In this document: positions 1-56,779 of the stretch, piece by piece | How the letters are laid out: each line of letters begins with the position of its first letter | Position numbering within the stretch: position 1 is the stretch's first letter | Assembly: GCA_036785375.1 (NCBI GenBank) | Contig: JAWMAR010000424.1 | Coordinates: 1,178,001 to 1,242,000, forward strand | Length of the DNA stretch: 64,000 nt | Reading direction: 5' to 3' | Source of the DNA: Leucoraja ocellata | Taxonomy: Eukaryota | Program-made: the position numbers and the translations under genes | Notes under the pieces: model-generated | Database searches by the model: none | Told to the model about the DNA's origin: nothing | The model's input: only the letters and a program-made list of their open reading frames with translations

Positions 1-445
1 ACCCTGCCATTCGAAACGGTAGCAGATGAAACGGATGTGAAAGTTATCATCCACAAGATGTCGACCATCATCATAGGAGAGACGAATGAAACGTGTGAAA
101 GATTCATTTTCAATAAACGAGACCAGAAATCAGGGGAAAGCATTGAATCGTATGTTGCAGAGCTGAAGGAGCTTGCTAAAACATGCAACTTCTGAGTGCC
201 TGAGCGAAAGCCTCATTCGAGATCGCATCGTCATTGGTATTGAGGACCAATCAACTAGGAAGACATTCCTTCAGAAGAGGAATCTGACACTGCAGAAGAC
301 TGTGGACATATGTAGATCCTCGGAGGTAACAGCAGCAAGAATGCAGGTCATCGGCGAAGAGCCGACAATAAACAAGGTGGAACGATTCAAACCGAGGGAA
401 AATATGGTTGATTTTCCTTCACAGAGGAAGAATCAGGGACTAGTC

Positions 446-1250
446 AATAATAATAATAATAATAATAATCTTTATTTATATAGCACTTTTCAACAAAACC
501 AGTATTTGAACCAAAGTGCTTTACAGAGATTGATTAAATTAATTGAACAGATCAAATGTCAATAAATCCATACAAAACAAAAAAGAGAAAAAAAAAAGAA
601 AAAAAGACACAGAACACTATAGAAATCAACATGAAACGTCCCCCTACAGCAGAATTCACTGTGAGGGAAGGCACTAAAAATATCCAGTTCTCCCCCTCAT
701 AGTCCACCCGAGGTCGGGGTCTATTTGTGGCCTCCTCAGCCAACTCGATGTTCTCAGGCCCTCTGCCGCGAAGCTGGATCATCGGCGTCGGGTGAACATT
801 CTTCAGCGGCCTGGACTGAAGCGGCCGCTTCCTCCCTGAAGACTGCAATGTCCAAAGTTCTCAGGCCGCGCTGGCCGGACCTCTGACACTGGCGAACTCG
901 GACACCAGGCCCCGCGGTGCTGAAATCCAGTGCCGCCCGCCCGCGCGCGGCTGGACCCTCTGCAGCCGCAGCTCAGCGATGTTGCAGTCGGCGTTCCTAG
1001 TGCCCCGGAGCTTACCCGAAGGCGACCCGGTAAGGCATCGCCTACTCCGTGTTGGTGTTGGTGTCCCAGCATCTGCACCGCCGGCGAAGCTGTAGTCCCG
1101 GCAGGAAATCGTCGCTCCAGCGCTGCTCCAGCTCGATGGTAGGCCGCACAGAGAGGACGAACAAGCGGTTCGGAAGAAAACCGCATCTCCGACCAGGTAG
1201 GACTGGGATTAAAACAGTTTCCCCCTTCCCCCCCCCCGCCACCACATAAA
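446..1250 (-). mobile_element. GC-rich non-coding retroposon with L2-type 3' tail and (ATT)n, inserted in Gypsy gag
   Basis: The - strand ends tgtaaagcactttg...aaagtgctatataaataaagattattatt. It shares a G-tract and a gccttcc..acagtga..gctgt domain with 48198-49150. Confidence 0.6.
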
Positions 1251-3679
1251 AGTGTAAGTTTTGTACTAGTCTCTACGACCTTGTACCGCACAAGGTCGTA
1301 GAGACATCTGACACAACGTCCATTTCCGGCACAGAGTCTGGGAGTTGCATTGAGATCAATGCAGCTGGAAACAATTCCTCTTCAGGCCTATTTGCTGAGA
1401 CGCAGGTTGGCACAGAAGCCATCATGTTTCAGATTGACATGGTGCTAGTGTTAATGTGATTTCCAAGGATCTTATACCCAACAATGAGGACATTAATCGA
1501 AAGAAAATCATCTTAAAGATGTACAACGGATCCAACCTGCTGGCAGAAGGTAGGATGAAAGTCGTACTACAAGCCGTAGAACAAGAAGTACCGTGTTCAC
1601 CTCATAGTGGTAGAGGAAGGCTGGCTCACATCGCTCCAGAGCGGCAAAGCTGCACAACTGATGAAACTCATCACAGTTCACTACGAGAACTTCAAGAGCC
1701 TGAATGCTGTTAGCGAGGCTGGCTCATTACTCAAGCTACAAAGATATCTTTGATGAGGAAAGACCTGGGAGACTGCCTGGCAAGGTCAAGTTGGTAACTA
1801 GGTTGGAGGATGTGACCCCATCACAGTGTCCTGCAAAGCCGGTACCTGTAGCCATGAAAGAGAAGGTCATGAATGGTCTCATGAAGCTGGTCGAGCAGGA
1901 CATCTTGACTAAAGTCGAAGAACCAACTGAGTGGTGTAGCAGGCTGGTCGTCACGGAGTAAAAGAACAGAACAGAGTTGAGGTTCTGCATAGATCCTAGA
2001 CCCCTCAACAAAGTCCTGAAAAGGGAGATCCACAGACTACTTATCATAGAGGATGTACTCCCTGAGCTGTCCAAGGCAAAGATTTTCTCCAGATTCGATC
2101 TGAAGTCAGGATACCTCCACTGCGAACTAGATGAGGAGAGCAATTTCCTAACAATCATGAACACTCCTTTTGTGAGATATCACTGGAAGAGGTGGCCATT
2201 TGGACAGAAAGTAAGTGCAGAGATCTTCCAGAAGAAGCTGCAACAAGCACTAGAAGGATTAAAGGGAGTGGAATGTGTTGCAGATGCCATCATCCTATTC
2301 GGAGTAGGGGACACCAGAGAAGATGCAGAAATGAATCACGATGCAAGACTGCAAGATCTTCTTCTGCGATACAGAGACAGAGCGATCAAGCTGAACCGGA
2401 AGAAGTCGGCAATGAAAACTACATGTATCACATTTAGGACATATAGTTACAGATCGTGGCCTGGAAGCGGATCCGAAGAAGATCCAAGCTATCCTAGAGA
2501 TGCCCAACCCAACCAATCCAACAGAAATCCAAGTTACAAGGCAGTGTAAACTACTTGGCAAGATTCCTGCCAATGTTGTCGGACACATTCAAGCCTTTGA
2601 CGAGATTGACCCACAAGGAAACAGAGTGGGTATTGTCATCAGAACATGACATGGCAATGTCAAAGATCAAGGATCTGTTGACAACGGCACCTATCCTGGT
2701 GTACTACACACCAGACGAACAGCTGGCCATACAATGTGATGCAACGCAGGTCTAGGTGCAACACTCATGCAGAAAGGACAACCACTGTCCTATGTGAGTC
2801 GAGCATTGACGCCAACCGAGCAGAGATATGTTCAGATTAAGAAGGAGGCACTAGCAATAGTGTTTGCCCTCCAGCGCTTCCATCAGTAAAACCTACGGAC
2901 AGAGAGTGATCATTCAGAGTGACCACAAGCCGTTGGAAGTCATTGTCAAAAAGCCTCTGCATAGAGGATCAAGACGTCTCCATGGCATGATGATGAGGAT
3001 GCTACACAATGACATCAAGATCAAATGGGTAAAGGGAAACAACATGCATCTAGCAGATATGTTCTCCCGAGCATACCTCCCTGACACCACAGGATCAACC
3101 AGATTCACTGATGTCAACGTAGTTGAGTCCTTGAGCATGGGAGAGGACAAGGTCAAACGCATCCAAGCCCATATCAGGGAAGATGAAACACTACAAACAG
3201 TTAAGAGAGTAATCCAAAATGTATGGCCAGATCACAAGGCAGAAGTCCCAGAGGCAGCACCACCATACTTCAACGTCAGAGACGAGTTGAGTGTGCAAGA
3301 TGGCCTATTATTCACAGGAGAGAGAGTTGTAATCCCTGTCACTCTACGCAATGATATGAAGAAGACACTCCACATCTCTCACTCTACGCAAAGATATGAA
3401 GAAGACACTCCACATCTCTCACCTGGGAGTGGAAGGAACCCCCATACGTGCTAGAGAATGCATTTTCTGGCCCGGAATGAACTCTGATGTGAAGCAGTTC
3501 ATTTCAAACTGTGAAGCCTGCAGGACGCACGAACAGCAGAATCAGAAAGAAACTCTGATGCCCCATGACCTCCCAGATCAACCATGCGAGAAAGTGGGAC
3601 TTGAGGGAGTGAACAGTAGTCTGGAACAAAGATTACATGGAAGGAGAACAAGAAAGACACTTCCAACTACATCTAACCT

Positions 3680-4160
3680 CTTTTTTTGGCTTTTATAATC
3701 TTTTTATTTGTTTTTTTCAAAAACAAAAACAAAACAAAAAAATAAAATTAAAATAATGATAAACATAACAATGATATTGATACATAGGGATCAGGATTAC
3801 ATAAATAACAAATAGAACCTAAATATGAGTCCAGTGTCTAAACATTGAGTATAGAACTCCCGGTCTCTATGTAAATATAGTTAAGTGTTTAAAAGAGAAC
3901 TTGTATATATAAAAACAAAAAGATAGAAAGAAAAAAGAGAAAAAAGAGAAAAACAAAACCCCCTAAACTAGAAAAAAAAGCAAAACAGAATCTGGGCTGC
4001 AAAGAATTTGTTGTCAAGTCCGTCCCTGTTTGTCATCAAGTCCGTTTCACTTATGAAGGTAAAATAATTATAATAACAGTTGGAGAGGGGACAATTTATA
4101 TTGTGTGAAAATGTTGCATAAAGCTTCCCCAAGTCCTAGCAAATTCAACCGAGGGTTCAA
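3680..4160 (-). mobile_element. L1/Tx1-like LINE 3' fragment inserted in the Gypsy element
   Basis: AT-rich 3' UTR with an A-rich end on the - strand; aacctc is repeated on both sides (target-site duplication). Confidence 0.55.
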
Positions 4161-5386
4161 AACCTCCTCAAACCGCGTGGTGCTGAGATACTCACAGAAG
4201 AGAGGAAAAAGATGAAGGATTTGCAAGGAAAACTGTCAAAAATCTACAACCAATATGCCAAGGATCTGCCAATCCTGGAAGAAGGTGATGTCGTAAGACT
4301 CAAACCCTATAAACTAGAAGATACCAGATGGCAGAGAGCAACAGTTCAGAGACGACTGGATGAGAGATCATACGAAGTCGAGACAGTCAGGACTTCTAAT
4401 CCGACGAGTGGATCTGAAGAAGACCGGAGAACTACCCCCACACATAACTCCTGAGAAACCACCAGACGCGGAGAAGACTGAGAAACCTTTGCAACCTCAG
4501 CTGACACAAAAAATACCAACACAACAAGCATCACCAGAAAAAGATGCAACTCGTGAAACTCATAACACAGAGAAATCTAAACAAAAACAAAGTGACACAA
4601 GAGAAGAAACTAGAAGTGATGCACAGAATGTACACACTGAAAAGAAGACACTTTTGAAAGAAACACCATCACAAAGACTAGGGCAGGAAGAGCTGTCGGA
4701 CAGCCGGAGAGGTCCAGCGAGTATGTCACAAAGTAATGTGTTTCGTTGCGATGTACCTACATGCTTATGAGAAGATAGCATGTGAACATTATTTTACGTT
4801 ATTGAAATGTCACAAGTGTGACTATGATTGAAATTGTGAGATAAGACAGAACAGTTGTTTTATTTTGTTGTTAAACCATATTACTACGGTGTAATATTAT
4901 GAAAAGTGTTTAAGTTTACTTTGTTTTGGATCGTTGGAAATGTAATCCCAAAACGTCAAAAAGGAAAGGATGTGACAATATCCATGTAACTTATGCGTAT
5001 GAGCTGTACTCATTCTCGCACATGCTTAGTAAATCAGTCAAGACCTTTGACTTGGAAATAAATCATTCCTGTTTTGATCCCAATACGAGTGTGTGTGCAG
5101 CCATCTTTCTCTGTATATTATGTGCTAGTTTACTTATTTTGTAAGCAAACATATATCAAAACAGATATGGACCAAATATGGGCAACTGGGACTAGTGTAG
5201 CTGGGACATGTTGGTCGATGTGGGCAAGTTGGGCCGAAGGGTCTGTTTCCAAGTTGTATCACTCTATGACTCTATGACTCTAAGTGCACTTGCTGAATTG
5301 TTTCATATTATATTCCCTGGGTTGACAGAGAGACATTTTGTCCAGTGTGAATAGCCCAGAAATGTTCATTCTGAAGTCTATTACAC

Positions 5387-6346: not shown

Positions 6347-6436
6347 CGCCGGTTACAGATGTCACCACAGGAAGTCCCGATGAGGATGAAAATCAAGCAA
6401 GGAATCTGGAAAATCCAAGTGCAGTAAAACAGGAAG
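6347..6436 (+). CDS. 90-nt cytoplasmic repeat exon A of probable upstream B7-H6-like paralogue
   Basis: Acceptor ttgtgttttaatacag|, donor G|GTAATG, phase 1-1, open: APVTDVTTGSPDEDENQARNLENPSAVKQE. Confidence 0.72.
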
Positions 6437-6528
6437 GTAATGCTTTTGCTGAAACATAGAACATAGAACAGTACAGCACAGGAACAGGCCCTTCAGCCCA
6501 CGGTCTGTGCTGAACGTGATGCCAAGAC

Positions 6529-6940
6529 CATAGAAACATAGAAATTAGGTGCAGGAGTAGGCCATTCGGCCCTTCGAGCCTGCACCGCCATTCAATATGA
6601 TCATGGCTGATCATCCAACTCAGTATCCCGTACCTGCCTTCTCTCCATACCCCCTGATCCCCTTAGCCACAAGGGCCACATCTAACTCCCTCTTAAATAT
6701 AGCCAATGAACTGGCCTCAACTACCCTCTGTGGCAGAGAGTTCCAGAGATTCACCACTCTCTGTGTGAAAAAAGTTATTCTCATCTCGGTTTTAAAGGAT
6801 TTCCCCCTTATCCTTAAGCTGTGACCCCTTGTCCTGGACTTCCCTAACATCGGGAACAATCTTCCTGCATCTAGCCTGTCCAACCCCTTAAGAATTTTGT
6901 AAGTTTCTATAAGATCCCCTCTCAATCTCCTAAATTCTAG
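6529..6940 (-). mobile_element. CR1 LINE 3' fragment
   Basis: SLEFRRLRGDLIETYKIL...GYGEKAGTGY* with (TTTCTATG) tail. Confidence 0.9.
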
Positions 6941-7961
6941 AGAGTGCATCTGGATATCTCCTTTAAACATTGCCCCTCTCAACAAAGCTGTGCCCTCTAG
7001 TATTTGTATCTCACATCCTGAGAAAAAGGTTCTGACTGTCTACCCTATCTATGGCTCTTTGAATTTTATAAACTATCAGGTAAATTCACAAAGATGGCAC
7101 ATTATCTGTGTGCAACTCCACATATTCATGTTCAGTTGTTACTGTTTGTGTGCTCTGCCCGTTAAAATCTTTATTCCACCTGCAAGATTTTCAATCTTAT
7201 TTTCTTCCTGTAAGTATAGAACTATATTCTGCACTTCATCTTCCCCTTTGACTTGATTATATTTATGGCTGGTACACCTGATCTGGTTGGATTGCTGCAA
7301 AACAAAGCTTTTCACTGAACCTCAGTACATGTGACAATAATAAACCTGAAGCTAAACCACGTGATTTTACTAGAATAAGATCTTCTGCCATGAGACACAA
7401 GCGCACTTGCTGAATTGTTTCAATCTCTATTCCCTGGGTTGACAGAGAGACATTTTGTCCAATGTGAATATCCCAGAATTGTTCATTCTGAAGTCTAGTA
7501 GACATTTGTCTTGTAGCAGGGACGGGATAGTCATAGAGTGATACAGCGTGGAAACAGGTACTTCGGCCCAACTTGCCCACACTGGCCAACATGCCCCAGC
7601 TACACTAGTCCCAACTGCCTGTGCTTGGTCCCTATCCCTCCAAACTTGTCCTATCCATGTGTTTAAGAGGGACAGTTAGTCTGAAGAAGGGTTTCGGCCC
7701 GAAACGTTGCCTATTTCCTTCGCTCCATAGATGCTGCTGCACCCGCTGAGTTTCTCCAGCTTTTCTGTGTAACCTTGTCCTATCCATGTACCTGTCTGAC
7801 AGTTTCTCAAACGTTGGGATAGTTGCAGCCTCAGGCAGCTTGTTCCATACACCCACCATTTAGGCCACATTTAGAGTATTGTGTTCAGTTCTTGGCACCA
7901 TGTTATAGGAAAGATGTTGTCTAGCTGGGAAGGGAACATAGAAGATTTACGAGGATGTTGC

Positions 7962-10296
7962 CAGGAGTACAGAAGGAAACAGGCCATACGGGCTGAAAAG
8001 ATGAAGTACGAAGGGAAGCTGGCCAGGAATATAAAGAAGGACAGTAAAAGCTTATTTTGATATGTTAAGGGAAAAAGAGTAACAAAGTGAATTTTGGGTC
8101 CTTTGGCGGCAGACACGGGTGAAATTATTATGGGCAACAAGGAAATGGCAGAAGAGTTGAATATGTACTTTGGATCTGTCTTCACTAAGGAAGACACAAA
8201 CAATCTCCCAGATGTACTGGAGGACAGATAATTTTAGGGGGTAGAGGACCTGAAAGAAATTTTCATTGGGCGAGCAATAGGCTAATGGGACTGAAGGATG
8301 ATAAATCCCCTGGGCCTGATGGTCTGCATCCCAGGGTCCTCAGGGAGGTGGCTCTATAAATAGTGGACGCATTGGTGATTATTTTTCAATGTTCAATCGA
8401 TTCAGGATCAGTTATAACCATATAACCATATAACAATTACAGCACGGAAACAGGCCATCTCGACCCTTCTAGTCCGTGCCGAACACGTATTTTCCCCTAG
8501 TCCCATACACCTGCGTTCAGACCATAACCCTCCATACCTTTCCCGTCCATATAACTATTATTTTTAAATGATAAAAACGAACCTGCCTCCACCACCTTCA
8601 CTGGAAGCTCATTCCACACAGCCACCACTCTCTGAGTAAAGAAGTTCCCCCTCAGGTTACCCCTAAACTTCTGTCCCTTAATTCTCAAGTCATGTCCCCT
8701 TGTTTGAATCTTCCCTACTCTCAGTGGGAAAAGCTTATCCACGTCAACTCTGTCTATCCCTCTCATCATTTTAAAGACATCTATCAAGTCTTTAACCTTC
8801 TGCGCTCCAAAGAATAAAGCCCTAACTTGTTCAACCTTTCTCTGTAACTTAGTTGCTGAAACCCAGGCAATATTCTAGTAAATCTCCTCTGTACTCTCTC
8901 TATTTTGTTGACATAACGTGGATTGGAGGATAGCTAACGTTATCCCACTTTTCAAGAAAGGAGCGAGAGAGAAAATGGGGAATTACAGACCAGTTAGCCT
9001 GAATTCAGTGGTGGGAAAGATGTTGGAGTCAATTATTAAAAATAGGTAATAATGGGGCATTTGGATGGCAGTAAAAGGATTAGTCCAAGTCAACATGGAT
9101 ATATGAAAGTGAAATCATGCTTGACTAATCTTCTGGAATTTTTTGACGATGTGACAAGTAAAATGGATGAAGGGGTGCCAGTGGATGTAGTGTATCTAGA
9201 CTTTCCAAAAGCCTTTGATAAGGTCCCGCACGGGAGACTGGTGACTAAAATTAGAGCACATGGTATTGGGGGTAGGGTGTTGACATGGATAGAAAATTGG
9301 TTGGCAGACAGGAAGCAAAGAGTAGGAGTGAACGGGTCCTTTTCAGAATGGCAGGCAGTGGTGAGTGGCGTGCCGCAAGGCTCGGTGTTGGGGCCGCAAC
9401 TATTTACCATATATATTAATGATTTGGAAGAGGGAATTAGGAGCAACACTAGCAGGTTTGCGGATGACACAAAGCTGCGTGGCAGTGTGAACTGTGAAGA
9501 GGATGTTAGGAGGTTGCAGGGTGACCTGGATCTCAATGGGGTTAGGTTAGGTAAGGGGAGGTGCAGCGAGACCTAGGCGTCCTTGTACACCAGTCACTGA
9601 AAGTTGGCGTGCTGGTACACCAGGCAGTGAAGAAAGCTAATGGAACGTTGGCCTTCATAACAAGAGGATTTCAGTATACGAGTAAAGAGGTTCTTCTGCA
9701 GTTATATTGGGCTCTGGTGAGACAACATCTGGAGTATTGTGTCCAGTTTTGTTCTCTGAATCTGATGAAGGACATCCTTGTAATTGAGGCAGTGCAGCAT
9801 AGGTTCACGAGATTGATCCCTGGGATGGCGGGACTGTCTTATGAGGAAAGATTGAAAAGACTAGACTTGTATTCACAAGAGTTTAGAATGATGAATGGTT
9901 ATCTTATAGAAACATATAAAGTTATAAAGGGACTGGACAAACTAGATGCAGGAAAAATGTTCCCAATGTTGGGTGGGTCCAGAACCAGGGGCCAGTCTCA
10001 GAATAAAGGGGGAGCCATTTAAGACTGAGGTGAGAAAAAGCATTTTCACCCAGGGAGTTGTGAATTTGTGGAATTCCCTGCCACAGAGGGCAGTGGAGGC
10101 CAAGTCATTGGATGGATTTAAGAGAGAGTTAGATAGATCTCTCGGGGCTAGTGGAATCAAGGGATATGGGGAGAAGGCAGGCACGGGTTATTGATTGGGG
10201 ACGATCAGACATGATCACAATGAATGGCGGTGCTGGCTCGAAGGTCCGATTCGCCCCCTACTGCACCTATTTTGTATGGTTCTATGTCTATGTTTC
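7962..10296 (+). mobile_element. Degenerate CR1 LINE ORF2, interrupted by an inverted CR1 3' fragment (~8414-8913)
   Basis: RT motifs [25 protein letters not shown] and FADDTKL, with frameshifts. Confidence 0.9.
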
Positions 10297-10656
10297 TAGT
10301 AGAGGGTCAGAGCTATAGGCAGAGGTTGAGTAGTCTGTGACTCTACGTACATAGGTTTAAGGTGAAGGGGAATAGATTGAGTAGGAATCTGTGGCATAAC
10401 TTTTCTGCAGGAGTGAGATACAGATCCTTTGGCAGATGAAGACTTCACTGTGGGGAAGAATAATAAAGTTCCTTGAGGTGTCTAAAGAAGAGTTTCGACC
10501 CGAAACGTTGCCTATCTCCATCGCTCCATAAATGCTGCCCCACCCGTTGAGTTTCTCCAGCATTTGTGTCTACATTTTGTCCAGCATCTCCTATACCTTG
10601 TCTCAGGCTGTGTTGCCATTATCACATCTGAGAGACTTTCTTTTGTTTAAATGCAG

Positions 10657-10746
10657 TGCCCAAGTCAGATGCTGCCACACGGAGTTGTGATGAAGGTGAA
10701 CAAGAGACAGCGAGGGAGGATACCCAAAATGCAGGAGCAAGTGAAG
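10657..10746 (+). CDS. 90-nt cytoplasmic repeat exon B of upstream paralogue
   Basis: Acceptor ttttgtttaaatgcag|, donor G|GTACGG, phase 1-1, open: VPKSDAATRSCDEGEQETAREDTQNAGASE. The upstream intron resembles that of exon A. Confidence 0.68.
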
Positions 10747-10862
10747 GTACGGCATTTCTCAAAACATCCAGAGTATTGTTGACCTTTCAGTGGCATTTGA
10801 TGCCCAACCACTGTCTGCAGACTGTACATGATTATATTTAGTTAATCCCTGCAAATATTATA

Positions 10863-13800
10863 TATTAGCGAGTCAAGACGGTAGTTGTTTTCCCAAACGA
10901 GCTTTATTGTCAAAGCAGTGAAAACAACGGAGATCATACGACAGCTAACACAAAACGATCTTACCACAACGGTGGGCGAAGTAATGAATGGGGCTAGCCC
11001 AGAAAACGTGCAAAAACAAAACGCCTCCCCAGTCACGTGACCGAGGTAGCCGACCACAGGGTTCGCACAGAGAGTGGTGAGTCCGTGTAATTCTCTGCCT
11101 CAGAGGGCGGTGGAGGCAGGTTCTCTGGATGCTTTCAAGAGAGAGCTGGAGAGGGCTCTTAAAGAATCAGGGAATATGGGGAAAAGGCAGGAATGGGGTA
11201 CTGATTGGGGATGATCAGCCATGATCACATTGAATGGAGGTGCTGGCTCGAAGGGTCGAATGGCGAACTCCTGCACCTATTGTCTATTGTCTATTGTCTA
11301 CCCACAGGCACCAGCAGGTGCCACTACATGATCCCCCCCCAGAACCCGAGGTACGGAACCGAGCCGTACGGATCCGTATGGAACAGCCAGACGTGTGGTC
11401 CGCGTAGACGGGGCGGGCGTTACATTGGGGGCCGGCAAAACAAGGCCGAGGGCAGGCAAAGGAGCAGAAAAAACGGGGTTGGGGATGACCTCTACGTGGC
11501 GGCGCAGCCATGACCAACGGGCTGTCCACATCCACATGGGCGAGTTTGAGACGGCCGATGGAGACAAACTCCTCCCGGCCTCCCATGTCCATCGTGAACG
11601 TGGCGACTCCAGCTCGCAGCAGCTAGAACGGCCCATCATAGACCCATTGTAATGGTGAGTGGTGAGGGTCCCTGCGGATGAAAACATGGGCACACTGTTG
11701 TAACACCGCGGGCACATGCACCGTGGACGAACCGTGCCTGAATGTGGGAATGGGTTAACGTGGTCAGCTGCTCGGTAAGGCCGGCCAGCAGCACCGGGGC
11801 TGATGTGACATGACCGCGGGCGGCAGGCAGAAAATCCCAGGGCACCCGCAGGGCCGAGCCGTACACGAGCTCTGCCGAGGAAGCAGCCAAATCCTCCTTA
11901 GGTGCGGTGCGTATACCAAGGAGGACCCAGGGCAGTTGATCCACCCAGTCTGGGCCCATAAGCCGAGCTTTCAACGTAGACTTAACCGATGGAACCTTTC
12001 GACCAGCCCATTGGCCTGCGGGTGGTAAGCGGTCGCATGGTGTAACCGGGCACCGTAGAGCTGGGCTAGGGCAGACCAGAAGGAAGAGGTGAACTGGGCC
12101 CCCCTGTCAGTGGAAATGTCGGAGGGCACCAAACCTGGTGACCCAGTGGGCCGCCATAGCCCGAGCGCAAGCCGCGGCGGAGGTATCAGAAAGCGGGATC
12201 GCCTCTGGCCACCGCGTGAAATGGTCCACGATGGTGAGTAGGTGCGTGGCACCGCAGGACTGATGCAAGGGACCTACAAGGTCGACATGCACGTGCAGGA
12301 ACCTACACTCAGGGAGCGCAAACTCCTGCACGGGGGGCCGCTTGTGTCGCTGGACCTTGGAGGTCTGACAAGATACACAGGCACGGGCCCAGGCAGCCAG
12401 CTGTTTACAGAGCCCATGCCAGACGAACTTGGCCGCTACCAGCGCGGACGTCGCCCGAATGGATGGGTGAGCCAGGCCATGAACGGCGTCGAAGACCCGC
12501 CGTCTCCAACTGATGGGGACGATAGGGCGGGCGCGACCGGTGGAGACATCACACACGACCATGATGCGTACAGCTCCGCAAGGCACTTCGGCCAGCTGAA
12601 GGTCCGAAACCGCGGTGCAGGAGACTTCCATACCTGCGTCCGCCCGCTGCGCTGTTGCCAGCTCGCTGTAGTCAACACCGTGGTCGAGGGCCGGAATGGA
12701 GGGGATGGCGGGGTGGGACAAGGCGTCGGCAATTATGTTAAGTTTCCCCGCGATGTGGCGGACATCGGTCGTAAATTCTGAAATGTAGGCCAGGTGCCGC
12801 TGCTGGCGGGCGGACCACAGATCAGCGATCTTACCCAGGGCGAAAGTAAGGAACTTGTGGTCCGTGAACACGGTGAACGCCCGGCCCTCGAGGAAATACC
12901 TGAAATGCCTGACGGTCAGGTACAGCGGCAGAAGCTCACGGTCGAAAGCTGTAGTTGCATTCTGGAGCCCGCAGCTGACGACTGAAAAAGGCCAACTGCT
13001 GCCAGCGGCCGTCGATGAGTTGCTCCAGAACGCCCCTAGTGCAGCATCCGAGGCGTCTACGGTGAGCACGGTGGGGGCGGAAGCGCGCGGATTGACCAAC
13101 ATGGTAGCGTTGCCCAGGGCTGCCTTGGCACCATTGATGGCCGCGTCCGCCTCCTCGGACCACACGAGGTCCCGCGGTTTACCCGCCTGGCACCGGAACA
13201 GGGGCCGCATGATGTCAGCAGCTGCCGCATGAAATGGTGATAAAAATTCACCATGCTGACAAACTCCTTTAGTCCCCTCACGGTGAGCGGCCTGGGGAAC
13301 TGACGAATGGCCTCGACCTTCGCGGGGAACGGTGCAGCACCTTGTTGGGTAACGCTGTGCCCCAGGAAGGAAATGGAGCGGAGGCCAAACTGGCATTTCG
13401 CTGGGTTAATAGAAAATAGACAATAGACAATTGGTGCAGGTGTAGGCCATTCGGCCCTTCGAGCCAGCACCGCCATTCAATGTGATCATGGCTGATCATT
13501 CCCAATCAGTACCCCATTCCTGCCTTCTTCCCATAGCCCCGCTATTTTTAAGAGACCTGTCTAGCTCTCTCTTGAAAGCATCCAGAGAATCCGCCTCCAC
13601 TGCCCTCTGATGCAGAGAATTCCACAGACTCTCCATTCTCTGTGAGAAAAAGTGTTTCCTCGTCTCCATTCTAAATGGCTTACTTCTTATTCTATTCTTA
13701 AACTGTGGCCCTGGTTCTGGACTCCCCTTAATGACGAGGCCGTGTTCACGGAGGCACTGAAACAAAGACCGGGGTTGGGTGACGTCCTCCGCTTGCGAGG

Positions 13801-13914
13801 CGCTGGCGACCAGAATGTCGTCCAAATAAATGAACACAAGTTCAGGTCATACGATATGACATGACCGCGGGCGGCAGGCAGAAAATCCCCAGGCACCCGT
13901 AGGGCCGAGCCGTA
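10863..13914 (-). mobile_element. 5'-truncated Gypsy retrotransposon (RT end, RNase H, integrase, 3' LTR ~10863-11328) with two CR1-tail insertions (~11064-11300, ~13410-13727)
   Basis: YLDDILVAS, TVDASD, FTDHK, HVHVDLVGPL, STDRGAQF and HPQANGLVERFHR motifs. LTR ends in ccactaca next to a C-run (PPT on - strand). Confidence 0.9.
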
Positions 13915-14004
13915 TCGGGTCAATGCTCAAATATGTGGAATTTTCTGTTTGGAACTCCACGTATTCAAGTTCAGTTATTGTCACCTTGTTGTGTTTTAAT
14001 ACAG

Positions 14005-14094
14005 CGCCGGATTCACATGTCACTACAGGAAGTCCCCATGAGGGTAAAAGGGAAAAGGAAAATCGGGAAAAACAAAGTGCAGGAAAACAGGAAG
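14005..14094 (+). CDS. 90-nt cytoplasmic repeat exon C of upstream paralogue
   Basis: Acceptor ttgtgttttaatacag|, donor G|GTAAGG, phase 1-1, open: APDSHVTTGSPHEGKREKENREKQSAGKQE. Confidence 0.72.
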
Positions 14095-15033
14095 GTAAGG
14101 CTTTTGCTGAAATACAGAACATAGAACAGTACAGCACAGGAACATGCCCTTCAACCCACAATGTCTGTGCTGAACATGATGCCAAGACCATCAATTATCT
14201 ACCTGCACATAACCCATATCCCTCCATTCCCAGCATATCCATGTGTCTATCCAAAAGCCTCTGAAAGGTCACTATCATATCAGCCTCGACCACCACCCCT
14301 GGCAGCGCGTTCCAGCCACCCACCACCCACTGTGTATAAAACCTGCCCAGCACATAGTCATTGTCACAGAGTCATAGAGTGATACAGTGTGGAAACCGGC
14401 CCTATTACCCAACTTGCCCACACCGGCCAATATGTCCCAGCTACACTTGTCCCAGCTGCCCACATTTGTTCCATAATCCTCCAAACAAGTCCCATCCATT
14501 TACCTGTCTAACTGTTTATTAAATGTTGGCATTAGCCCCTGCCTGAACTACCTCCTTTTGTCCCATACACCCACCACGCTTTGTGTGACAAAGTTACCCC
14601 TCAGATTCCAATTCAATCATTTCCCCTTCACCTTAAACCTGGTCCTCGATTCACCTACTCTGAGCAAGGGGCTTTGTGCATCTGGATATCTCCTTTAAAC
14701 GTTGCTGCTCTCATCTTAAAGCTGTGCCCTCTAGTATTTGTATCTTGCATCCTGGGAAAAAGGTTCTGACTGTCTACCCTATCTATGGCTCTTATAATTT
14801 TACAAACTATCAGCTAAATTCACAAAGATGGCACATTATCTGTGTGCAACTCCACATATTCATGTTCAGTTGTTACTGTTTGTGTGCTCTGCCCTTTAAA
14901 ATCTTTTTTCCACCTGCAAGTGTAGATCTTTTAAATCTTATTTTCTTCCTTTATGACATGAATTCTGTGAATCATATGTACAATAATATTTGCTTGGTTC
15001 CATTTCTAAGCCCTTTCCTTTGTGTTAATTCAG

Positions 15034-15143
15034 CATCAACTCCAACGGGAATACAAGTGGAAGCAAAAGACAGCAAAGCAGAAAATGATTTTAAATCACA
15101 GAATCAGGAAGAGAAAGGGGAAAAAGAATCGGAAAATGACTGA
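15034..15143 (+). CDS. Terminal coding exon of upstream paralogue
   Basis: Acceptor ccctttcctttgtgttaattcag|. The phase-1 frame reads ASTPTGIQVEAKDSKAENDFKSQNQEEKGEKESEND*, with composition like the repeat exons. Candidate AATAAA at 19349-19354. Confidence 0.62.
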
Positions 15144-15380: not shown

Positions 15381-18300
15381 TAGCAATGTTATAAAATTTT
15401 GAGATTTAAAAAATCAAGTCTGCAATTTATTCCATCAGATAAAGCATAAAAAGAAGTTTAATTTGACACCTAATTCACTTTCATATCTTCAGTATTAAAA
15501 AGGTTATGGCCATTTTCATACTCGGAATATGCATCTTGTTCCCTATTGTTTTTCCATTGACTTAACACAAAAGCTGTGATCAAGGACTGTCAAAGCCCAT
15601 AACTTTCTTAAAAATTAAGAGAACTGAATGAAATTTTCAGTTATTATAGATTGAAGCATTCTGAAACAGATATGAAACAATCTTACTTGAATGACCTGAA
15701 ATTAAAGCATATAATTAGTTAGTTACCCAATTGTAGCTAATTCCAAAATTCAATTACTAGATCTAAACATCTATCCATTTCTTAAGAAAAGGTTAACATT
15801 TTTAAAAAGCCTATGTATCCAAATACCATTCACACAAGAATTCACAATATAACATGATTTTTTAATCTCATTGTTATGAATTTATAGGCCAAATGGAAGG
15901 AATTTAGTGTTCAATTCCTGTAAACTAATGGGCATTTAAATCATCTTGCGAGTGGGATTTTGTGGAACGCGCTGGTTTGGAACGTTGCAGTTGCAGTGAA
16001 TTGAAACCCCATATCATATAACCATATAACATATAACCATATAACAATTACAGCACGGAAACAGGCCATCTCGACCCTTCTAGTCTGTGCCAAACACGTA
16101 TTCTCCCCTAGTCCCATATACATGCGCTCAGACCATAACCCTCCATTCCTTTCTCGTCCATATAACTATCCAATTTATTTTTAAATGATAAAAACGAACC
16201 TGCCTCCACCACCTTCACTGGAAGCTCATTCCACACAGCTACCACTCTCTGAGTAAAGAAGTTCCCCCTTATGTTACCCCTAAACTTCTGTCCCTTAATT
16301 CTCAAGTCATGTCCCCTTGTTTGCATCTTCCCTCCTCTCAGTGGGAAAAGCTTATCCACATCAACTCTGTCTATCCCTCTCATCATTTTAAAGACCTCTA
16401 TCAAGTCCCCCCTTAACCTTCTGCGCTCCAAAGAATAAAGCCCTAACGTGTTCAACCTTTCTCTGTAACTTAGCTGCTGAAACCCAGGCAACATTCTAGT
16501 AAACCTCCTCTGTACTCTCTCTATTTTGTTGACATCCTTCCTATAATTAGGCGATCAAAATTGTACCCCATACTCCAGAATTGGCCTCACCAATGCCTTG
16601 TACAATTTTAACATTACATCCCAACTTTTATACTCAATGCTCTGATTTATAAAGGCCAGCACACCAAAAGCTTTCTTTACCACCCTATCTATATGAGATT
16701 CCACTTTCAGGGAACTGTGCACAGTTATTCCCAGATCCCTCTGTTCACCTGCATTCTTCAATTCCGTACCATTTACCATGTACGTCCTATTTTGATTTGT
16801 CCTGCCAAGATGTAGCACCTCACACTTATCAGCATTAAACTCCATCTGCCATCTTTCAGTCCACTCTTCCAACTGGCATAAATCTCTCTGTAGACTTTGA
16901 AAATCTACTTCATTATCCACAACCCCTCCTATCTTAGTATCATCTGCATACTTACTAATCCCATTTACCACACCATCATCCAGATCATTGATGTACATGA
17001 CAAACAACAGTGGACCCAACACAGATCCCTGTGGCACCCCACTAGTCACTGGCCTCCAACCTGACAAACAACCATCCACCATTACTCTCTGGCATCTCCC
17101 ATTCAGCCACTGTTGAATCCATCTTGCTACTCCACCATTAATACCCAACCATTGAACCTTCTTAACCAACCTTCCATGAGGAACCTTGTCAAAGGCCTTA
17201 CTGAAGTCCATATATACAACATCCACTGCTTTACCCTCATCAATTTCCCGAGTAACCTCTTCAAAAAATTCAAGAAGATTAGTCAAACATGACCTTCCAG
17301 GCACAAATCCATGTTGACTGTTCCCAATCAGACCCTGTTTATCCAGATGCTTATATATATTATCTCTAAGTATCCTTTCCATTAATTTGCCCACCACTGA
17401 CGTCAAACTAACAGGTCTATAATTGTTAGGTTTACTCTTGGACCCCTTTTTAAACAATGGAACAACATGCGCAGTACGCCAATCCTCCGGCACTATTCCC
17501 ATTTCTAATGACATTTGAAATATTTCTGTGATAGCCCCTGCTATTTCTACACTAACTTCCCTCAATGTCCTAGGGAATATCCTGTCCGGACCTGGAGACT
17601 TATCTACTTTTATATTTCTCAAAAGTGTCAGTACTTCCTCTTCTTTGAATCTCATAGTTTCCATAGGTACTCTACTTGTTTCCATTACCTCACATAATTC
17701 AATATCCTTCTCCTTGGTGAATACCGAAGAAAAGAAATTGTTCAATATCTCCTCCATCTCTTTTGGCTCTGCAGATAGCTGTGCACTCTGACTATCTAAT
17801 GGACCAATTTTATCCCTCGTTATCCTTTTGCTATTAATATAGCTGTAGAAACCCTTTGGATTTACTTTCACCTTACTTGCCAAAGCAACCTCATATCTTC
17901 TTTTAGCTTTTCTAATTTCTTTCTTGAGATTCTTTTTACATTCTTTATAGTCCTCAAGCACCTCATTTACTCCATGCTGCCTATAATTATTGTAGATCTC
18001 TCTTTTTTTCCAAACCAAGTGTCCAATTTCCCTTGAAAACCATGGCTCTTCCCTATTTTTACTATTTCCTTTCAACCGAACAGGGACATAAAGATTCTGT
18101 ACTCTTAAAATTTCACCTTTAAATGTACTCCATTTGTCTTCCACATCTTTCCCATAAAACAAAATGTCCCAATTTACTCCTTTTAAATCCTTTTGCATCT
18201 CCTCAAAGTTAGCCTTTCTCCAATCAAAAATCTCAACCCTAGGTCCAGTTCTGCCCCTCTCCATAATTATATTGAAACTAATGGTATTGTGATCACTGGT

Positions 18301-18918
18301 CCCGAACTGTTCCCCAATGCATACCTCTGCCACCTGACCCGTCTCATTTCCTAACAGGAGGTCCAGCACCGCCCCTTCTCTAGTAGGTACTTCTATGTAT
18401 TGCTGCAAAAAACTATCCTGCACACATTTTACAAACTCCAACCCTTCCAGCCCATTTACAGAATGTGTTTCCCAGTCTATGTGTGGAAAATTGAAATCTC
18501 CCACAATCACTACCTATATCGGTAGGAAAAATACTGCCGGATTGTATATTTACATAATGACACTTTTGCAACTTAAAATTTTGATTAAAGGCATCCTAAG
18601 AAGCAAGTTTATATGAAAAAATAAACGGCATACCTTGCCTTGTCCCCTACGTGAGATCCTTCCTGATGTCGGCGTTTGAAGATTACTTTAAATTTACTCC
18701 AACAATTAAATGATCCAGCAATAATTTAAGTAAACTTAATAAAACGGCAGTCGAAGCGATGTTTCTTTAGTAACTAAACAGCCTGACGGAGATCAATTTG
18801 AATAGGTTGCTGAAAAATCGCATTTAAACCCACCCCCCTCTCAAATGCGCCAAAGTCGCGCACACGGGCAGCGACAGAACTGCAGCGCCGCTGAAGGTAG
18901 GTTTTGTAACATACCTAC
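15381..18918. mobile_element. Non-autonomous DNA transposon-like element (~1 kb; arms 15381-~16010 and ~18513-18918) split by a CR1 insertion
   Basis: Imperfect TIRs: tagcaatgttataaaa versus reverse complement taggtatgttacaaaa. Flanks cattccc/cattctc. It interrupts a palindromic Penelope/MER6-like element whose halves lie on either side. Confidence 0.6.
16011..18512 (-). mobile_element. CR1 LINE, 5'-truncated, largely intact ORF2
   Basis: 651-aa ORF (GDFNFPHIDW, KSPGPD, YADDTK) followed after one stop by the C-terminal ORF; (TATATGGT)n tail. Confidence 0.95.
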
Positions 18919-21083: not shown

Positions 21084-22946
21084 ATAGAAACATAGAAATT
21101 AGGTGCAGGAGTAGGCCATTTGGCCCTTCGAGCCTGCACCGCCATTCAATATGATCATGGCTGATCATCCAACTCAGTATCCCGTACCTGCCTTCTCTCC
21201 ATACCCCCTGATCCCCTTAGCCACAAGGGCCACATCTAACTCCCTCTTAAATTATGGATGCTTTATGGATTATTATACTGCATATATGCAGTATAATAAT
21301 ACTATTAATAATACTATTAATATGGATTATTATACTGCATCTACCAAACATTTGCCCACTCACCCAGCCTATCCAAGTCACCTTGCAGTCTCCTAGCATC
21401 CTCCTCACAGATAACACTGCCCCCCCAGCTTAGTGTCATCCGCAAACTTGGAGATATTGCCTTCAATTCCCTCATCCAGATCATTAATATATATTGTAAA
21501 TAGCTGGGGTCCCAGCACTGAGCCTTGCGGTACCCCACTAGTCACTGCCCGCCATTGTGAAAAGGACCCGTTTACTCCTACTCTTTGCTTCCTGTTTGCC
21601 AGCCAGTTCTCTATCCACATCAATACTGAACCCCCAATGCCTTGTGCTTTAAGTTTGTATAATAATCTCTTATGTGGGACCTTGTCGAAAGCCTTCTGGA
21701 AGTCCAGATACACCACATCCACTGGTTCTCCCCTATCCACGCTACTGGTTACATCCTCGAAAAATTCTATAAGATTCGTCAGACATGATTTACCTTTCGT
21801 AAATCCATGCTGACTTTGTCCAATGATTTCACCACTTTCCAAATGTGCTGCTATCCCATCTTTAATAACTGACTCTAGCAGTTTCCTCACTACCGATGTT
21901 ATACTAACTGGCCTGTAATTCCCCATTTTCTCTCTCCCTCCCTTCTTAAAAAGTGGGGTTACGTTTGCTTCCCGCCAATCTTCAGGAACTACTCCAGAAT
22001 CTAAAGAGTTTTGAAAGATTATTACTAATGCATCCACTCTTTCTGGAGCTACTTCCTTAAGTACTCTGGGATGCAGCCTATCTGGCCCTGGGGATTTATC
22101 GGCCTTATATCCATTCAATTTACCCAACACCACTTCCCGGCTAACCTGGATTTCACTCAATTCCTCCAACTCCTTTGATCCGCGGTCCCTTGCTATTTCC
22201 GGCAAATTATTTATGTCTTCCTTAGTGAAGACGGAACCAAAGTAGTTATTCAATTGGTCCGCCATATCCTTGTTCCCCATGATCAACTCACCTGTTTCTG
22301 ACTGCAAGGGACCTACATTTGTTTTAACTAATCTCTTTCTTTTCACATATCTATAAAAGCTTTTGCAGTCAGTTTTTATGTTCCCTGCCAGTTTTCTTTC
22401 ATAATCTATTTTTCCTTTCCTAATTAAGCCCTTTGTCCTCCTCTGCTGGTCTTTGAATTTCTCCCAGTCCTCCGGTATGCTGCTTTTTCTGGCTAATTTG
22501 TACGCATCATCCTTCACTTTGATACTATCCTTGATTTCCCTTGTTATCCATGGATGTACTACCTTCCCTGATTTATTCTTTTGCCAAACTGGTATGAACA
22601 ATTTTTGTAGTTCATCCATGCAGTCTTTAAATGTCTTCCATTGCATATCCACCGTCAACCCTTTTAGAATTAATTGCCAGTCAATCTTGGCCAATTCACG
22701 TCTCATAACCTCAAAGTTACCTTTCTTTAAGTTGTGAATTAACAATGTCACTCTCCATCCTAATGAAGAACTCAACCATATTATGGTCACTCTTGCCCAA
22801 GGGGGCACGTACAACAAGATTGCTAACTAACCCTTCCTCATTACTCAATACCCAGTCTAAAATAGCCTGCTCTCTCATTGGTTCCTCTACATGTTGATTT
22901 AGATAACTATCCCGCATACATTCCAAGAAATCCTCTTCCTCAGCAC
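21084..22946 (-). mobile_element. Inverted, internally deleted CR1 copy of the same family nested in the element above
   Basis: 3' tail at 21084-21251 and 470-aa ORF 21405-22817, nearly identical to 24703-25850. Confidence 0.9.
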
Positions 22947-23830: not shown

Positions 23831-24706
23831 ACAGGTAGGCGGCGCGACTCTCGTCAGCAGCGGCCTCTGCAGCCCGTCCGCTTTTTTATTATTTTTGTCT
23901 ATGTTTTTATGTAGTTTTTGTTATTTTTTGTTTGGGTGTGAGTGTGTGTGGGGGGGGGGGGGGGGGGGAGGTGGGGTGGGAGGGAGGGGGTAACTTTTAA
24001 ATTTCTCCCTGCACGGGAGACCCGACCTTTTCTTTGTCGGGTCTCCGTTGTTGTTGGGGTTGCAACGTGGAGCGGCCTCCAACAGGAGAAGACCGGGGAC
24101 TCTGGTGCCGACGACTCACCTCACCATCGCGGGGCTGGCCGAGTCCGGAGCGGGTGGAGCGGTGTTGGAGCGCTGCTGCTGCTGCAGCCCGACCTCCGGA
24201 GATTCGGAGGCTGAAACTGCGGGTCTGGCGGACGGCGGCACCGGGAGCCCGCGGGTCCCTGGAGGGAGACCGCTTTTCAGGGCTCCTGCAACGGCGACTT
24301 CTCCCGCCCGAGTTGCGGGGTTGAAGAGCTCCTGGAGCGGGGCCTGACATCACTGCCCCGCGTGGCTTGGAATGGCCGCGGGACTCTGCGAGCGCACGCC
24401 GCGGGCTCTAACACCAAAACCCGGTGTGCGACCTCGCACCACCCGACGTGGCTTTAATGGCCGCGGGACAATCGCCATCGCCAGCCGGGGGCTTTGACTT
24501 TGACTCTGACATTGGGGGGGGGGGCGGGGAGAGTGCAGTGGAGAGATAAGTTTTTTTGGCCTTCCATCACAACGATGTGATGGATGTTTATGTAAATTAT
24601 GTTGTGTCTTGGGTCTATTTGTTTTGTAATGTATGGCTGCAGAAACGGCATTTCGTTTGGACCTCAAGGGGTCCAAATGACAATTAAATTGAATCTTGAA
24701 TCTTGA
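23831..24706 (+). mobile_element. GC-rich non-coding retroposon (~0.88 kb) with Rex1-like tail (TCTTGAA)n
   Basis: Interrupts CR1 ORF2 cleanly; near-identical inverted copy at 49198-50094. Confidence 0.85.
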
Positions 24707-30828: not shown

Positions 30829-32337
30829 TTAGCATTCATAGCAAAACGATTTGAGTATAGGAGCAGGGAGGTTCAACTGCAGTTGTCCAGGGTATTGGTG
30901 AGACCACACCTGGAGTATTGTGTACAGTTTTGGTCTCCTAATCTGAGGAAGGACATTCTTGCCATAGAGGGAGTACAGAGAAGGTTCATCAGACTGATTC
31001 CTAGGATGTCAGGACTTTCATATGAAGAAAGACGGGATAGACTCGGCATGTACTCGTTAGAATTTAGAAGATTGAGGGGGGATCTTATAGAAACTTACAA
31101 AATTCTTAAGGGGTTGGACAGGCTAGATGCAGGAAGATTGTTCCCGATGTTGGGGAAGTCCAGAACAAGGGATCACAGTTTAAGGATAAAGGGGAAATCT
31201 TTTAGGACCGAGATGAGAAAAACATTTTTCACAGAGAGTGGTGTATCTTTGGAATTCTCTGCCACAGAATGTAGTTGAGGCCAGTTCATTGGCTATATTT
31301 AAGAGGGAGTTAGATGTGGCCCTTGTGGCTGAAGGGATCAGGGGATATGGAGAGAAGGCAGGTACAGGATGGATGATCAGCCATGATCATATTGAAGGCT
31401 CAAAGGTCCAAATGGCCTACTCCTGCACCTATTTTCTATGTTTCTATGTTTCTATGATGATGTGGTAAATCGGATTAGTAAGTATGCAGATGATACTAAG
31501 ATAGGTGGTGGATAATGATTTTTAAAGTCTACAGATAGATTTAGGCCATTTGGAAGAGTGGGCTGAAAGATGGAGTTTAATGCTGATAAGTGTGAGGTGC
31601 TACATCTTGGCATGACAACTCAAAATAGAACGTACATGGTAAATGGTAGCGAATTGAGGAATGTAGTTGAACAGAGGGATCTAGGAATAACTGTGCATAG
31701 TTCCCTGAAGGTGGAATCTCATGTAGATAGGGTGGTAAAGAAATCTTTTGGTGTGCTGGCCTTTATAAATCAGAGCATTGAGTATAGAAGTTGGCATGTA
31801 ATGTTAAAATTGTACAAGTTACAGAGAAAGGTTGAACAATGCATTTCGTTGTCTCTGTACTGTACACTGACAATGACAATTAAAATTGAATCTGAATCTG
31901 AATCTGAATCTGAATCTGAACAAGTTAGGTCTTTATTCTTTGGAGCACAGAAGGTTAAGGGGGGACTTGATAGAACTCTTTAAAATGATGAGAGGGATAG
32001 ACAGAGTTGACGTGGATAAACTTTTTCCATTGAGAGTAGGGAAGATTCAAACAAGAGGACATGATTTGAGAATTAAGGGCAGAAGCTTAGGGGTAACATG
32101 AGGGGGAACTTCTTTACTCAGAGAGTGGTAGCTGTGTGGAATAAACTTCCAGTGGAAGTGGTGGAGGCAGGTTCGATTTTATCATTTAAAAATAAATTGG
32201 ATAGGTATATGGACGGAAAATGATTGGAGGGTTATGGTCTGAGTGCAGGTAGATGGGACTAGGTGAGAATAAGTGTTCGGCACAAACTAGAAGGGCCGAG
32301 ATGGCCTGTTTCCGTCCTGTAATTGTTATATGGTTAT
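30829..32337 (+). mobile_element. Two adjacent CR1 3' fragments, with a short Rex1-like tail insertion (~31840-31920)
   Basis: LVRPHLEYCVQFWSP and MEFNADKCEVLHLG; (TGAATC)n insertion flanked by tgaacaa. Confidence 0.85.
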
Positions 32338-32512: not shown

Positions 32513-32561
32513 ATGAACATTCTGACTCTTTGCAGTGTGGTCTCATTTATTTCAGCATCAG
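32513..32561 (+). CDS. B7-H6-like gene, leader exon, distal duplicate copy
   Basis: Same 49-nt exon and donor as 35061-35109, inside a ~2.55-kb tandem duplication. Confidence 0.6.
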
Positions 32562-35060: not shown

Positions 35061-35109
35061 ATGAACATTCTGACTCTTTGCAGTGTGGTCTCATTTATTT
35101 CAGCATCAG
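35061..35109 (+). CDS. NCR3LG1: B7-H6/NCR3LG1-like gene, leader (signal peptide) exon, proximal copy
   Basis: ATG 35061 reads MNILTLCSVVSFISAS, then G|GTGAAG phase-1 donor. It joins in frame to the V exon (G+AT = Asp). Short hydrophobic stretch ending in small residues. Confidence 0.7.
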
Positions 35110-44331: not shown

Positions 44332-44664
44332 ATACCCTTGAGCTGGAGATATTTGCAAGTCCACTGAAGGTATTTGTAAATGACAATGTGACTCTGAAAT
44401 GCGTGGTTACTGGGTCTGGAAACGTTGACTTAAAAACAATGGCATTCAGATGGACCCTTAATGAGAAAACAGAAGTGTTTTCCTTTAAAGGAGGAACTAA
44501 ACAGCGAAATCGATCTGGTGCCAATATTTCTGAGGCTGAATTACTGAACGGAAACGTTTCAATTCGTCTTCCAAAAGTTCAGATCTCTGACGAAGGAATG
44601 TACACATGCACTGTGTTTATCTTCCCTGAAAGTGCCAGTCGCTTTTCAACAATGCACGTGTTAG
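44332..44664 (+). CDS. NCR3LG1: B7-H6/NCR3LG1-like gene, Ig V-set domain exon
   Basis: Acceptor tttttttag|, donor G|GTAAGA, 333 nt, phase 1-1, no stops. V-set motifs: VTLKC, FRW, GNVSIRLPKVQISDEGMYTC. NDNVT, VFxFxG and RxGA match recalled B7-H6 V-domain features. Confidence 0.9.
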
Positions 44665-53405: not shown

Positions 53406-53717
53406 CTCGACCAAACGTTATATTGACAGAGTCCATCACAACTGAGAAAGGTTCAGAAGTTTCTCTGACATGCAAAGCCAGTGGATTTTACCCTCGACCG
53501 ATAAAGATCACCTGGGTGAAGATAACAGGAAGAAGAAATGTTTCCATGACTAACTATACAACTCAAATCACTGCCAATGGTGATCGCACTTTCAATGCTG
53601 AGAGTGAACTGAAGATTCACCCGACATTGAAGGATAATGGTGATCAATACAGATGCGTTGTGACACATCAAACATTACTGAATGGTCTCACAATAGAACC
53701 TTCTCTCATCGTGCCAG
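53406..53717 (+). CDS. NCR3LG1: B7-H6/NCR3LG1-like gene, Ig C1-set domain exon
   Basis: Acceptor ttttttaatgcag|, donor G|GTGAGT, 312 nt, phase 1-1. C1 motifs: LTCKASGFYPRPIKITW, NGDRTFNAESELKI, YRCVVTHQTL. Confidence 0.92.
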
Positions 53718-56000: not shown

Positions 56001-56102
56001 AACATGGAAAAACAATGCTGATTATCGGAGGCATCTGTAGCATCGGCATATTTCTCTGTGTTGTGTGCATAGCATTTTATACGTGGAAGAAGAAATTTAA
56101 AG
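56001..56102 (+). CDS. NCR3LG1: B7-H6-like gene, transmembrane exon
   Basis: Acceptor gttttaacag|, donor G|GTAAAC, 102 nt, phase 1-1. Reads EHGKTMLIIGGICSIGIFLCVVCIAFYTWKKKFK: a hydrophobic helix followed by a basic stop-transfer motif. Confidence 0.85.
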
Positions 56103-56336: not shown

Positions 56337-56414
56337 GACCGGTAAATACAACGGACGTTGAAGACCCAAACCGTACACCACTTATCGCCAAGACGGGCTC
56401 ACAAACTGCACGAG
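56337..56414 (+). CDS. B7-H6-like gene, first cytoplasmic exon
   Basis: Branch-point-like ctaat, T-rich tract, gttcag| acceptor and G|GTAATT donor. 78 nt, phase 1-1, open: GPVNTTDVEDPNRTPLIAKTGSQTAR. Confidence 0.7.
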
Positions 56415-56715: not shown

Positions 56716-56779
56716 AGTCCCGGTGAGGGCGAAAGGCAAGCAATGAATCTGGAAAATCAAAGTGCAGGAAAATGGGAAG
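56716..56779 (+). pseudogene. 5'-truncated copy of the 90-nt cytoplasmic repeat exon
   Basis: SPGEGERQAMNLENQSAGKWE plus G|GTAATGCTTTT matches the last 64 nt and the donor flank of exon 6347-6436. The acceptor and first 26 nt are replaced by a LINE-tail remnant. Confidence 0.75.

Follow-up and report, generated by a model that had tools for sequence, protein, structure and literature searches.

A tandem array of frame-symmetric 90-nt exons as the likely cytoplasmic tail of a B7-H6-like protein in the skate Leucoraja ocellata

Introduction

B7 ligands are commonly regarded as ectodomains that carry short tails. In the chicken BG proteins, which belong to the B7 family (butyrophilin/B7), the tail is encoded by many 21-nucleotide (nt) exons, 13-36 per gene in one haplotype; the genes form a tandem cluster in which copy number has been changed by unequal crossing-over and tails have been truncated by intron read-through (PMC5938342, PMC4046983). 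Human B7-H6 (NCR3LG1; 454 amino acids, aa) has a Gag-homologous tail with an ITIM (immunoreceptor tyrosine-based inhibitory motif) as well as SH2- and SH3-binding motifs (PMC2715080). LAG-3 carries an acidic, repetitive cytoplasmic stretch, the EP tail, for which an action through charge has been proposed, by Zn2+ competition with CD4/CD8-LCK (PMC10768021). Here we describe exons in a 64,000-nt stretch of the Leucoraja ocellata genome, called the window (C424:1,178,001-1,242,000, C424 being contig JAWMAR010000424.1). They are best read, with a probability of about 0.62, as the 3'-terminal exons of a tandem array whose frame-symmetric 90-nt exons, or cassettes, likely encode the cytoplasmic tail of a B7-H6-like type I protein; this tail would be very long, acidic and, by prediction, disordered.

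Cassette exons and the extent of the array

Three phase 1-1 exons of 90 nt lie on the plus strand of the window. The class A exon (6347..6436; net charge -5) is third from last in the array of the upstream gene and is followed by a class B exon (10657..10746; net -5, with a class-invariant Cys) and a class C exon (14005..14094; net 0). The terminal coding exon T (15034..15143, plus strand) has 110 nt, encodes 36 aa including the split codon, and ends in TGA; over 211 nt it is 100% identical to the T of the next gene (C424:1,309,111). An initial annotation, made from the letters of the window, had proposed all four exons, and their positions, lengths (90/90/90/110 nt), AG/GT borders and peptides were all reproduced; borders and an open phase-1 frame were confirmed for each of the three cassettes. 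The homology that it saw between the 30-aa repeats also holds, with 70/90 identical nucleotides for A-C and 52/90 for both A-B and B-C (15, 9 and 11 of 29 aa identical for A-C, A-B and B-C). By contrast, its shift from acidic to basic at module C does not hold: this module is neutral, with 6 K/R against 6 D/E, and class C spans -4 to +1.

Cassette-associated intron segments are homologous as well. Segment 7030..7190 matches 14764..14920, and 5285..5385 matches 7400..7500 (all plus strand), with identities of 96% and 91-92%. In the 1.65 Mb surveyed here (C424:1-1,552,000 and all of contig C2905), every near-full-length match to these segments falls inside cassette-gene regions (41/41 and 57/57). 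The intron homologies are thus real and cassette-specific, which bears out the earlier suggestion that whole exon-plus-intron cassettes were duplicated.

The survey found 126 full-length and 25 partial cassette copies, counts that include assembly redundancy. Of the full-length copies, 121 have 90 nt, AG/GT borders and no stop codon, and represent 63 distinct sequences. The other five comprise one of 91 nt (on C2905), one that has lost its AG and three of 82/83 nt (C424:455-538 kb); the 91-nt copy possibly reflects a sequence error, because its overlapping C424 counterpart has 90 nt. An nhmmer search for divergent cassettes gave no new copy at E<1, and its 11 further matches (E 1.4-9.5) included four T-exon acceptors. 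Among the 40 scored of 86 and of 54 candidates no copy was present on other contigs, all of these 40 being on C424 or C2905.

The window's array holds 27 intact cassettes and reaches 145 kb upstream to a scaffold gap, its first cassette starting 4.4 kb past the 200 Ns at C424:1,043,991-1,044,190. The three annotated cassettes, while real, therefore only close a longer run. Scale was underestimated in general: the array exists, but genes carry 10, 16, ~47 and ~51 cassettes rather than three.

The B7-H6-like head and reconstruction of the genes

The next gene begins on the plus strand of the window with a signal-peptide exon present in two copies (32513..32561 and 35061..35109), an immunoglobulin (Ig) V exon (44332..44664; Pfam V-set) and an IgC1 exon (53406..53717; Pfam C1-set). 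The transmembrane (TM) exon (56001..56102) is followed by a basic stop-transfer stretch, suggesting type I topology. The juxtamembrane exon X1 (56337..56414; 78 nt, phase 1-1) has a donor at which read-through stops after two more codons, and behind it lies a broken cassette (56716..56779) that retains its 3' part and donor and lacks its 5' part. The initial annotation had recorded this broken copy correctly, but 16 intact cassettes, two Ig-like exons and T follow past the window (C424:1,245,761-1,309,220).

Signal peptide, IgV, IgC and a single TM segment in predicted type I orientation, which characterise the B7 family, are all present. The closest protein in the databases, at 89% over the V domain, is the CD276-like XP_055505900.1 of Leucoraja erinacea. 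In a phmmer comparison of this 293-aa relative with PDB, human B7-H6 was the best two-domain match (97 bits, against 59 for two-Ig CD276), and four-Ig CD276 ranked first by summed score (112 bits over two stretches). On the two-domain match the closest characterised ectodomain appears to be that of B7-H6, and the genes are here called B7-H6-like. A TRIM66-like gene (RING, PHD and bromodomain exons) is found on the same scaffold at C424:689-932 kb, on another scaffold piece than the window; it is the sole neighbour identified, from 143 of 533 candidate open reading frames (ORFs) scanned. Human NCR3LG1 is linked to TRIM66 on 11p15.

The exon order signal peptide-V-C1-TM-X1-cassettes occurs in three gene copies. 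Two of these are complete to T within a single piece, one with 10 cassettes at C424:201-320 kb and the one that begins in the window, with 16. All internal exons checked are phase 1-1. For the window's own array, a head directly upstream was rejected, as no V, C1 or TM exon occurs in scaffold order from C424:778,001 to the array and the gap at 1,043,991-1,044,190 breaks the gene. The upstream peptide search proposed earlier thus failed in scaffold order, but a link emerged from contig overlaps. C424:328,231-337,822 (reverse) equals C2905:1-9,592 at 100.000% with zero mismatches, and C2905:79,613-100,188 dovetails with C424:1,044,191-1,064,766 at 99.57%; the dovetail also fits a second register, longer by one 11-kb unit. 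Through this chain the array joins a minus-strand head (C424:391-365 kb) with two signal exons, V, C1, TM and X1. The gene would then comprise 7+17+27 = 51 intact cassettes, or 53 if the other register applies, along with two Ig-like exons and T; it would span ~280 kb and encode a predicted tail of ~1,900 aa with a cassette net charge of -174. Together with the Pfam and phmmer matches, the overlap link favours the earlier view that a B7-H6-like V-C1-TM gene bears this tail.

Some peculiarities of heads and scaffold were seen in passing. A 2.5-kb tandem duplication (97.9%; window 31917-34441 / 34465-36988) carries both intact signal-peptide exons; two signal exons are also found in the other two heads, and two C1 exons in the gene at C424:201-320 kb. 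The C424 scaffold appears to be mis-ordered or haplotype-redundant: in reverse, its piece 2 has 100% overlaps with C424:1 as well as with C2905:1, and a dovetail joins C2905 to piece 7.

Selection on the cassettes

Differences among the 64 distinct natural 90-nt exons were counted along a minimum spanning tree, with 4000 simulations giving the expected number of stops. The 170 codon differences comprised 142 non-synonymous, 28 synonymous and no stop-creating changes, against 7.4 stops expected (P=0.0005). Since tree edges can repeat one event, a conservative column-and-class count of distinct variants was added; it gave no stops in 86 against 3.9 expected (P=0.018). By the flank rates 9.7 exon indels were expected, and only one was seen (P=0.0007; based on 87 flank-distinct copies, with 6 non-alignable comparisons left out). 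The other two reading frames contain stops in 15/64 and 64/64 distinct exons.

Substitutions per site per edge numbered 0.022 in the exon and 0.031 and 0.020 in the flanks, and the ratio of non-synonymous to synonymous change (dN/dS-like) was 1.1-1.6, at or above neutral. Synonymous variants were fewer than expected (14 versus 20.4, P=0.038), in class A 0/18 (P=0.006, post hoc). From the deficits of stops and indels, the flank-like exon rate and the neutral or higher ratio it follows that frame, length and splice sites are kept, with the sequence free or mildly diversifying. Selection acts on frame and length, not on amino-acid sequence. The initial annotation had noted that length and frame survived while the sequence diverged, and had proposed the dN/dS comparison among repeats; the counts agree with its observation.

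An Ig-like second tail module

Amid the cassettes there is a further phase 1-1 exon of 423 or 432 nt, lengths that differ by an in-frame 9 nt, open in 9 of 10 copies. One copy of 423 nt follows the TM exon at C424:1,253,332-1,253,754. The exon came to light through RefSeq matches and does not occur in the window; the cassette-built tail of the initial annotation had missed it. No Pfam family matches it. AlphaFold2 predicts an Ig beta-sandwich of 11 strands (predicted local distance difference test, pLDDT, 74), the top Foldseek matches are V-type Ig domains (TM-scores ~0.45-0.64), and its ESM Atlas neighbours are V-set (0.91-0.93); the exon is thus predicted to encode an Ig fold. In more divergent genes at C424 512, 559 and 616 kb the TM exon is likewise followed by Ig-like or C1-like exons, and because these neighbours share the arrangement, post-TM Ig domains appear to be a feature of the cluster. 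No Gag family was found in a Pfam scan of the proteins P0004 and P0005, the tail consisting of cassette and Ig-like exons. HYDIN and TM_PBP2_N side matches of P0004 were below cut-off and were rejected.

The divergent loci (C424:512-540 kb, 557-575 kb and 616-647 kb) appear to be three more B7-H6-like genes or fragments with apparent intracellular Ig chains. A decayed segment, C424:445-540 kb, contains an X1 without a TM match, a broken Ig-like exon at 447 kb, three 82/83-nt cassettes and one frameshifted T; its last 82-nt cassette precedes the open T of the 512-kb gene.

Splicing models

Among 1.84 billion representatives, a profile search found two strong matches, both of them skate RefSeq models. 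In XP_078271721.1 (Rhinoraja longicauda), signal-V-C1-TM-X1 continues into an Ig-like domain plus seven modules. In Leucoraja erinacea, isoforms X1-X8 of LOC129705962 (XP_055505892-899) string together 10-12 modules, with the junctions as predicted; one or two modules are absent, in frame, from X3, X4, X7 and X8. In-frame skipping, as the initial annotation had predicted, is thus represented in these models, which point to cassettes being spliced in and also left out in frame, and to a possible short-tailed form through X1 read-through. The 30-aa module length is retained in a second skate genus. A weaker profile match, P0006 (E ~3e-5; likewise P0007), was set aside, P0006 being an unrelated Cys-rich repeat protein. 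Extra isoform exons of 38 and 45 aa were rejected as cassettes, as they match dispersed repeats on both strands; those at C424:12,423-12,557 (45 aa) and 1,054,487-1,054,600 (38 aa) are likely exonised transposon pieces within the array.

Alternative explanations

Several observations weigh against a membrane-anchored cassette tail as reconstructed here. The junction check called for by the initial annotation was made with four sequencing runs on a region with TM, X1, Ig-like, B and C exons. Transposon reads dominated, no exon junction was found among the 15 joints listed (1450 more being unlisted), and read depth was approximately zero in 3 of 4 runs in the bin with most of the Ig-like exon. 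The mapping was swamped by repeats, so that splicing of these exons is inferred. The RefSeq isoforms are themselves computed models, in which near-identical paralogous exons or reads can mimic skipping. A 100% overlap also exists between the head at C424:391-365 kb and another array, C424:1-186 kb (7+40 cassettes); phasing is therefore ambiguous, and the two arrays sharing one head may be two haplotypes of one gene. As to selection, gene conversion would make the edges of the spanning tree dependent on one another, and the three frameshifted 82/83-nt copies were excluded from the stop and indel tests. Finally, RefSeq splits head and array of L. erinacea into two genes, the head protein ending by X1 read-through, and a stop just past the X1 donor is present in all 4 X1 copies.

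These last points would fit a membrane protein that normally ends at X1; the array would then be translated, mainly from an internal start, into a soluble acidic repeat protein of its own, or else as a minor isoform. RefSeq indeed has a 293-aa head and a separate cassette protein of 479-577 aa, 7 of 8 cassette isoforms start at a Met inside the Ig-like exon, and stingray and devil-ray relatives are annotated with 264-273 aa and short tails. We nevertheless regard this as unlikely. The X1 donor is canonical and of matching phase, no AATAAA or ATTAAA occurs in the 880 nt past the read-through stop, and X1 is connected to the modules in the Rhinoraja model; moreover, the frame runs open through the internal Met in all 9 full-length copies of the Ig-like exon, and the predicted fold of the domain is a single unit that spans this residue. 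The array might alternatively be a recent segmental duplication without function, made to look larger by redundant haplotypes and mis-scaffolding and open because it is young; this would explain why many units are 95-100% identical, why C2905 duplicates C424 sequence on a scaffold with 6 gaps, and why the dN/dS-like ratio is not below neutral and 25 copies are partial. It seems very improbable, given that classes A, B and C differ at 22-42% of nucleotides and all have exactly 90 nt, that the module still has 30 aa in a second genus, and that the decayed segment at C424:445-540 kb does carry frameshifts in cassette, Ig-like and T exons. Young age is accounted for, because the stop and indel deficits were measured per observed difference.

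The tail might also be a sequence-specific signalling or decoy scaffold, in which S-x-x-E (CK2-type) phosphosites, the class B Cys and the Ig-like domains bind partners while pathogen pressure diversifies the rest. T8 and E30 are invariant in 64/64 and E13 in 63/64 distinct exons, S10-x-x-D/E13 is found in 109/121 copies and Cys11 in 49/49 B copies, and the synonymous deficit described above points the same way; cytomegalovirus is reported to suppress human B7-H6 (PMC5367895). However, the exon substitution rate equals that of the flanks, and the invariant positions may stem from recent duplication or splice-site constraint, so that we give this explanation little credence.

Tail composition and a possible mechanism

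Across 3509 residues in 121 copies, D/E make up 25.6%, L+I+V+M ~5%, P 5.8% and G 8.5%, with no F and 0.3% Y+W. Tyrosine is nearly absent (4/3509 residues, in 4/121 cassettes), as the initial annotation had indicated in stating that tyrosine motifs are lacking. The modules run as long series alternating between acidic B and near-neutral C.

A mechanism can be sketched in which the ectodomain engages a putative NKp30-type receptor and the tail acts in bulk, as a polyanionic brush or spacer. What would set clustering, turnover, or cation or kinase availability at the contact is the length and charge of the tail rather than its sequence, with the Ig-like domains forming folded nodes along it. Unequal crossing-over of exon-plus-intron units might enlarge the array and tune the tail between genes and haplotypes; splicing might tune it within cells, and read-through would truncate it. 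Taken as a whole, this mechanism is put forward with somewhat less than even confidence. More tentative still is a broader proposal: that the tails of a skate B7-H6-like natural killer (NK) ligand family are polymorphic, spliceable polyanionic polymers of up to ~1,900 residues, made from ~50 interchangeable exons with interspersed intracellular Ig domains, whose length and charge, set by copy-number haplotype and splicing, would adjust immune-contact signalling in the manner of a rheostat or present viral antagonists with a moving target.

Repeats around the genes

Between signal and V exons lie two mutually homologous minisatellite arrays (window 38731-40101 and 43531-44331), oppositely oriented and composed of 21-nt-type units, which flank a decayed stretch resembling a long terminal repeat (LTR) element. 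Judged by ORF appearance, decayed LTR-retrotransposon-like stretches occupy window 1-4780, 11483-13405, 41120-43308 and 59579-63880, and ORFs like those of long interspersed nuclear elements (LINEs) are found at 16555-18513, 21405-22826, 24700-26598 and 57182-58135.

Comparison with known systems

No description of the skate cassette tail was found in the literature, prior mention in comparative B7H6 papers being possible. The same modules, several as identical peptides, with the same junctions and in-frame skipping are contained in the RefSeq entries XP_055505892-899, XP_055505900 and XP_078271721. These differ in being automatic 'uncharacterized' annotations with 7-12 modules, with head and tail split in Leucoraja, and are not described as a family. 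Current RefSeq models thus split or truncate these skate genes, and the annotation is corrected here.

Although the initial annotation knew of no description of it, the modular tail as such is not new, since an exon-array tail in the B7 family is already known from chicken BG (PMC5938342, PMC4046983). Both systems consist of type I B7-family proteins in a head-to-tail cluster, with many small split-codon tail exons that vary in number between genes, and in both selection is seen on the tail. Chicken BG has 21-nt exons encoding coiled-coil heptads and a single V domain, whereas the skate exons have 90 nt and encode acidic 30-mers of low hydrophobicity, the ectodomain is V-C1 with a C1-set exon present, and the array is spread over up to ~280 kb and mixed with Ig-fold exons. 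The likeness is probably convergent, and no sequence homology is claimed.

Human B7-H6 shares the V-C1-TM ectodomain and is the best two-domain PDB match. Compared with the published description of its tail, the skate proteins differ in predicted tails of ~650-1,900 aa, in an almost complete lack of tyrosine and in forming a multigene cluster. LAG-3 likewise has an acidic, repetitive cytoplasmic stretch on an immune protein of the Ig superfamily; as described, that stretch is short and belongs to a receptor, so that the analogy is functional only.

The skate tail would be a second, apparently independent exon-array tail after that of chicken BG, which suggests a general pressure on B7-family tails. 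The skate cluster, with 10-50 frame-locked exons per gene and drifting sequence, constitutes a natural experiment on selection for the length and charge of a disordered region. The function of the BG tail is a long-standing question, and for this the skate tail offers a comparator with a different chemistry.

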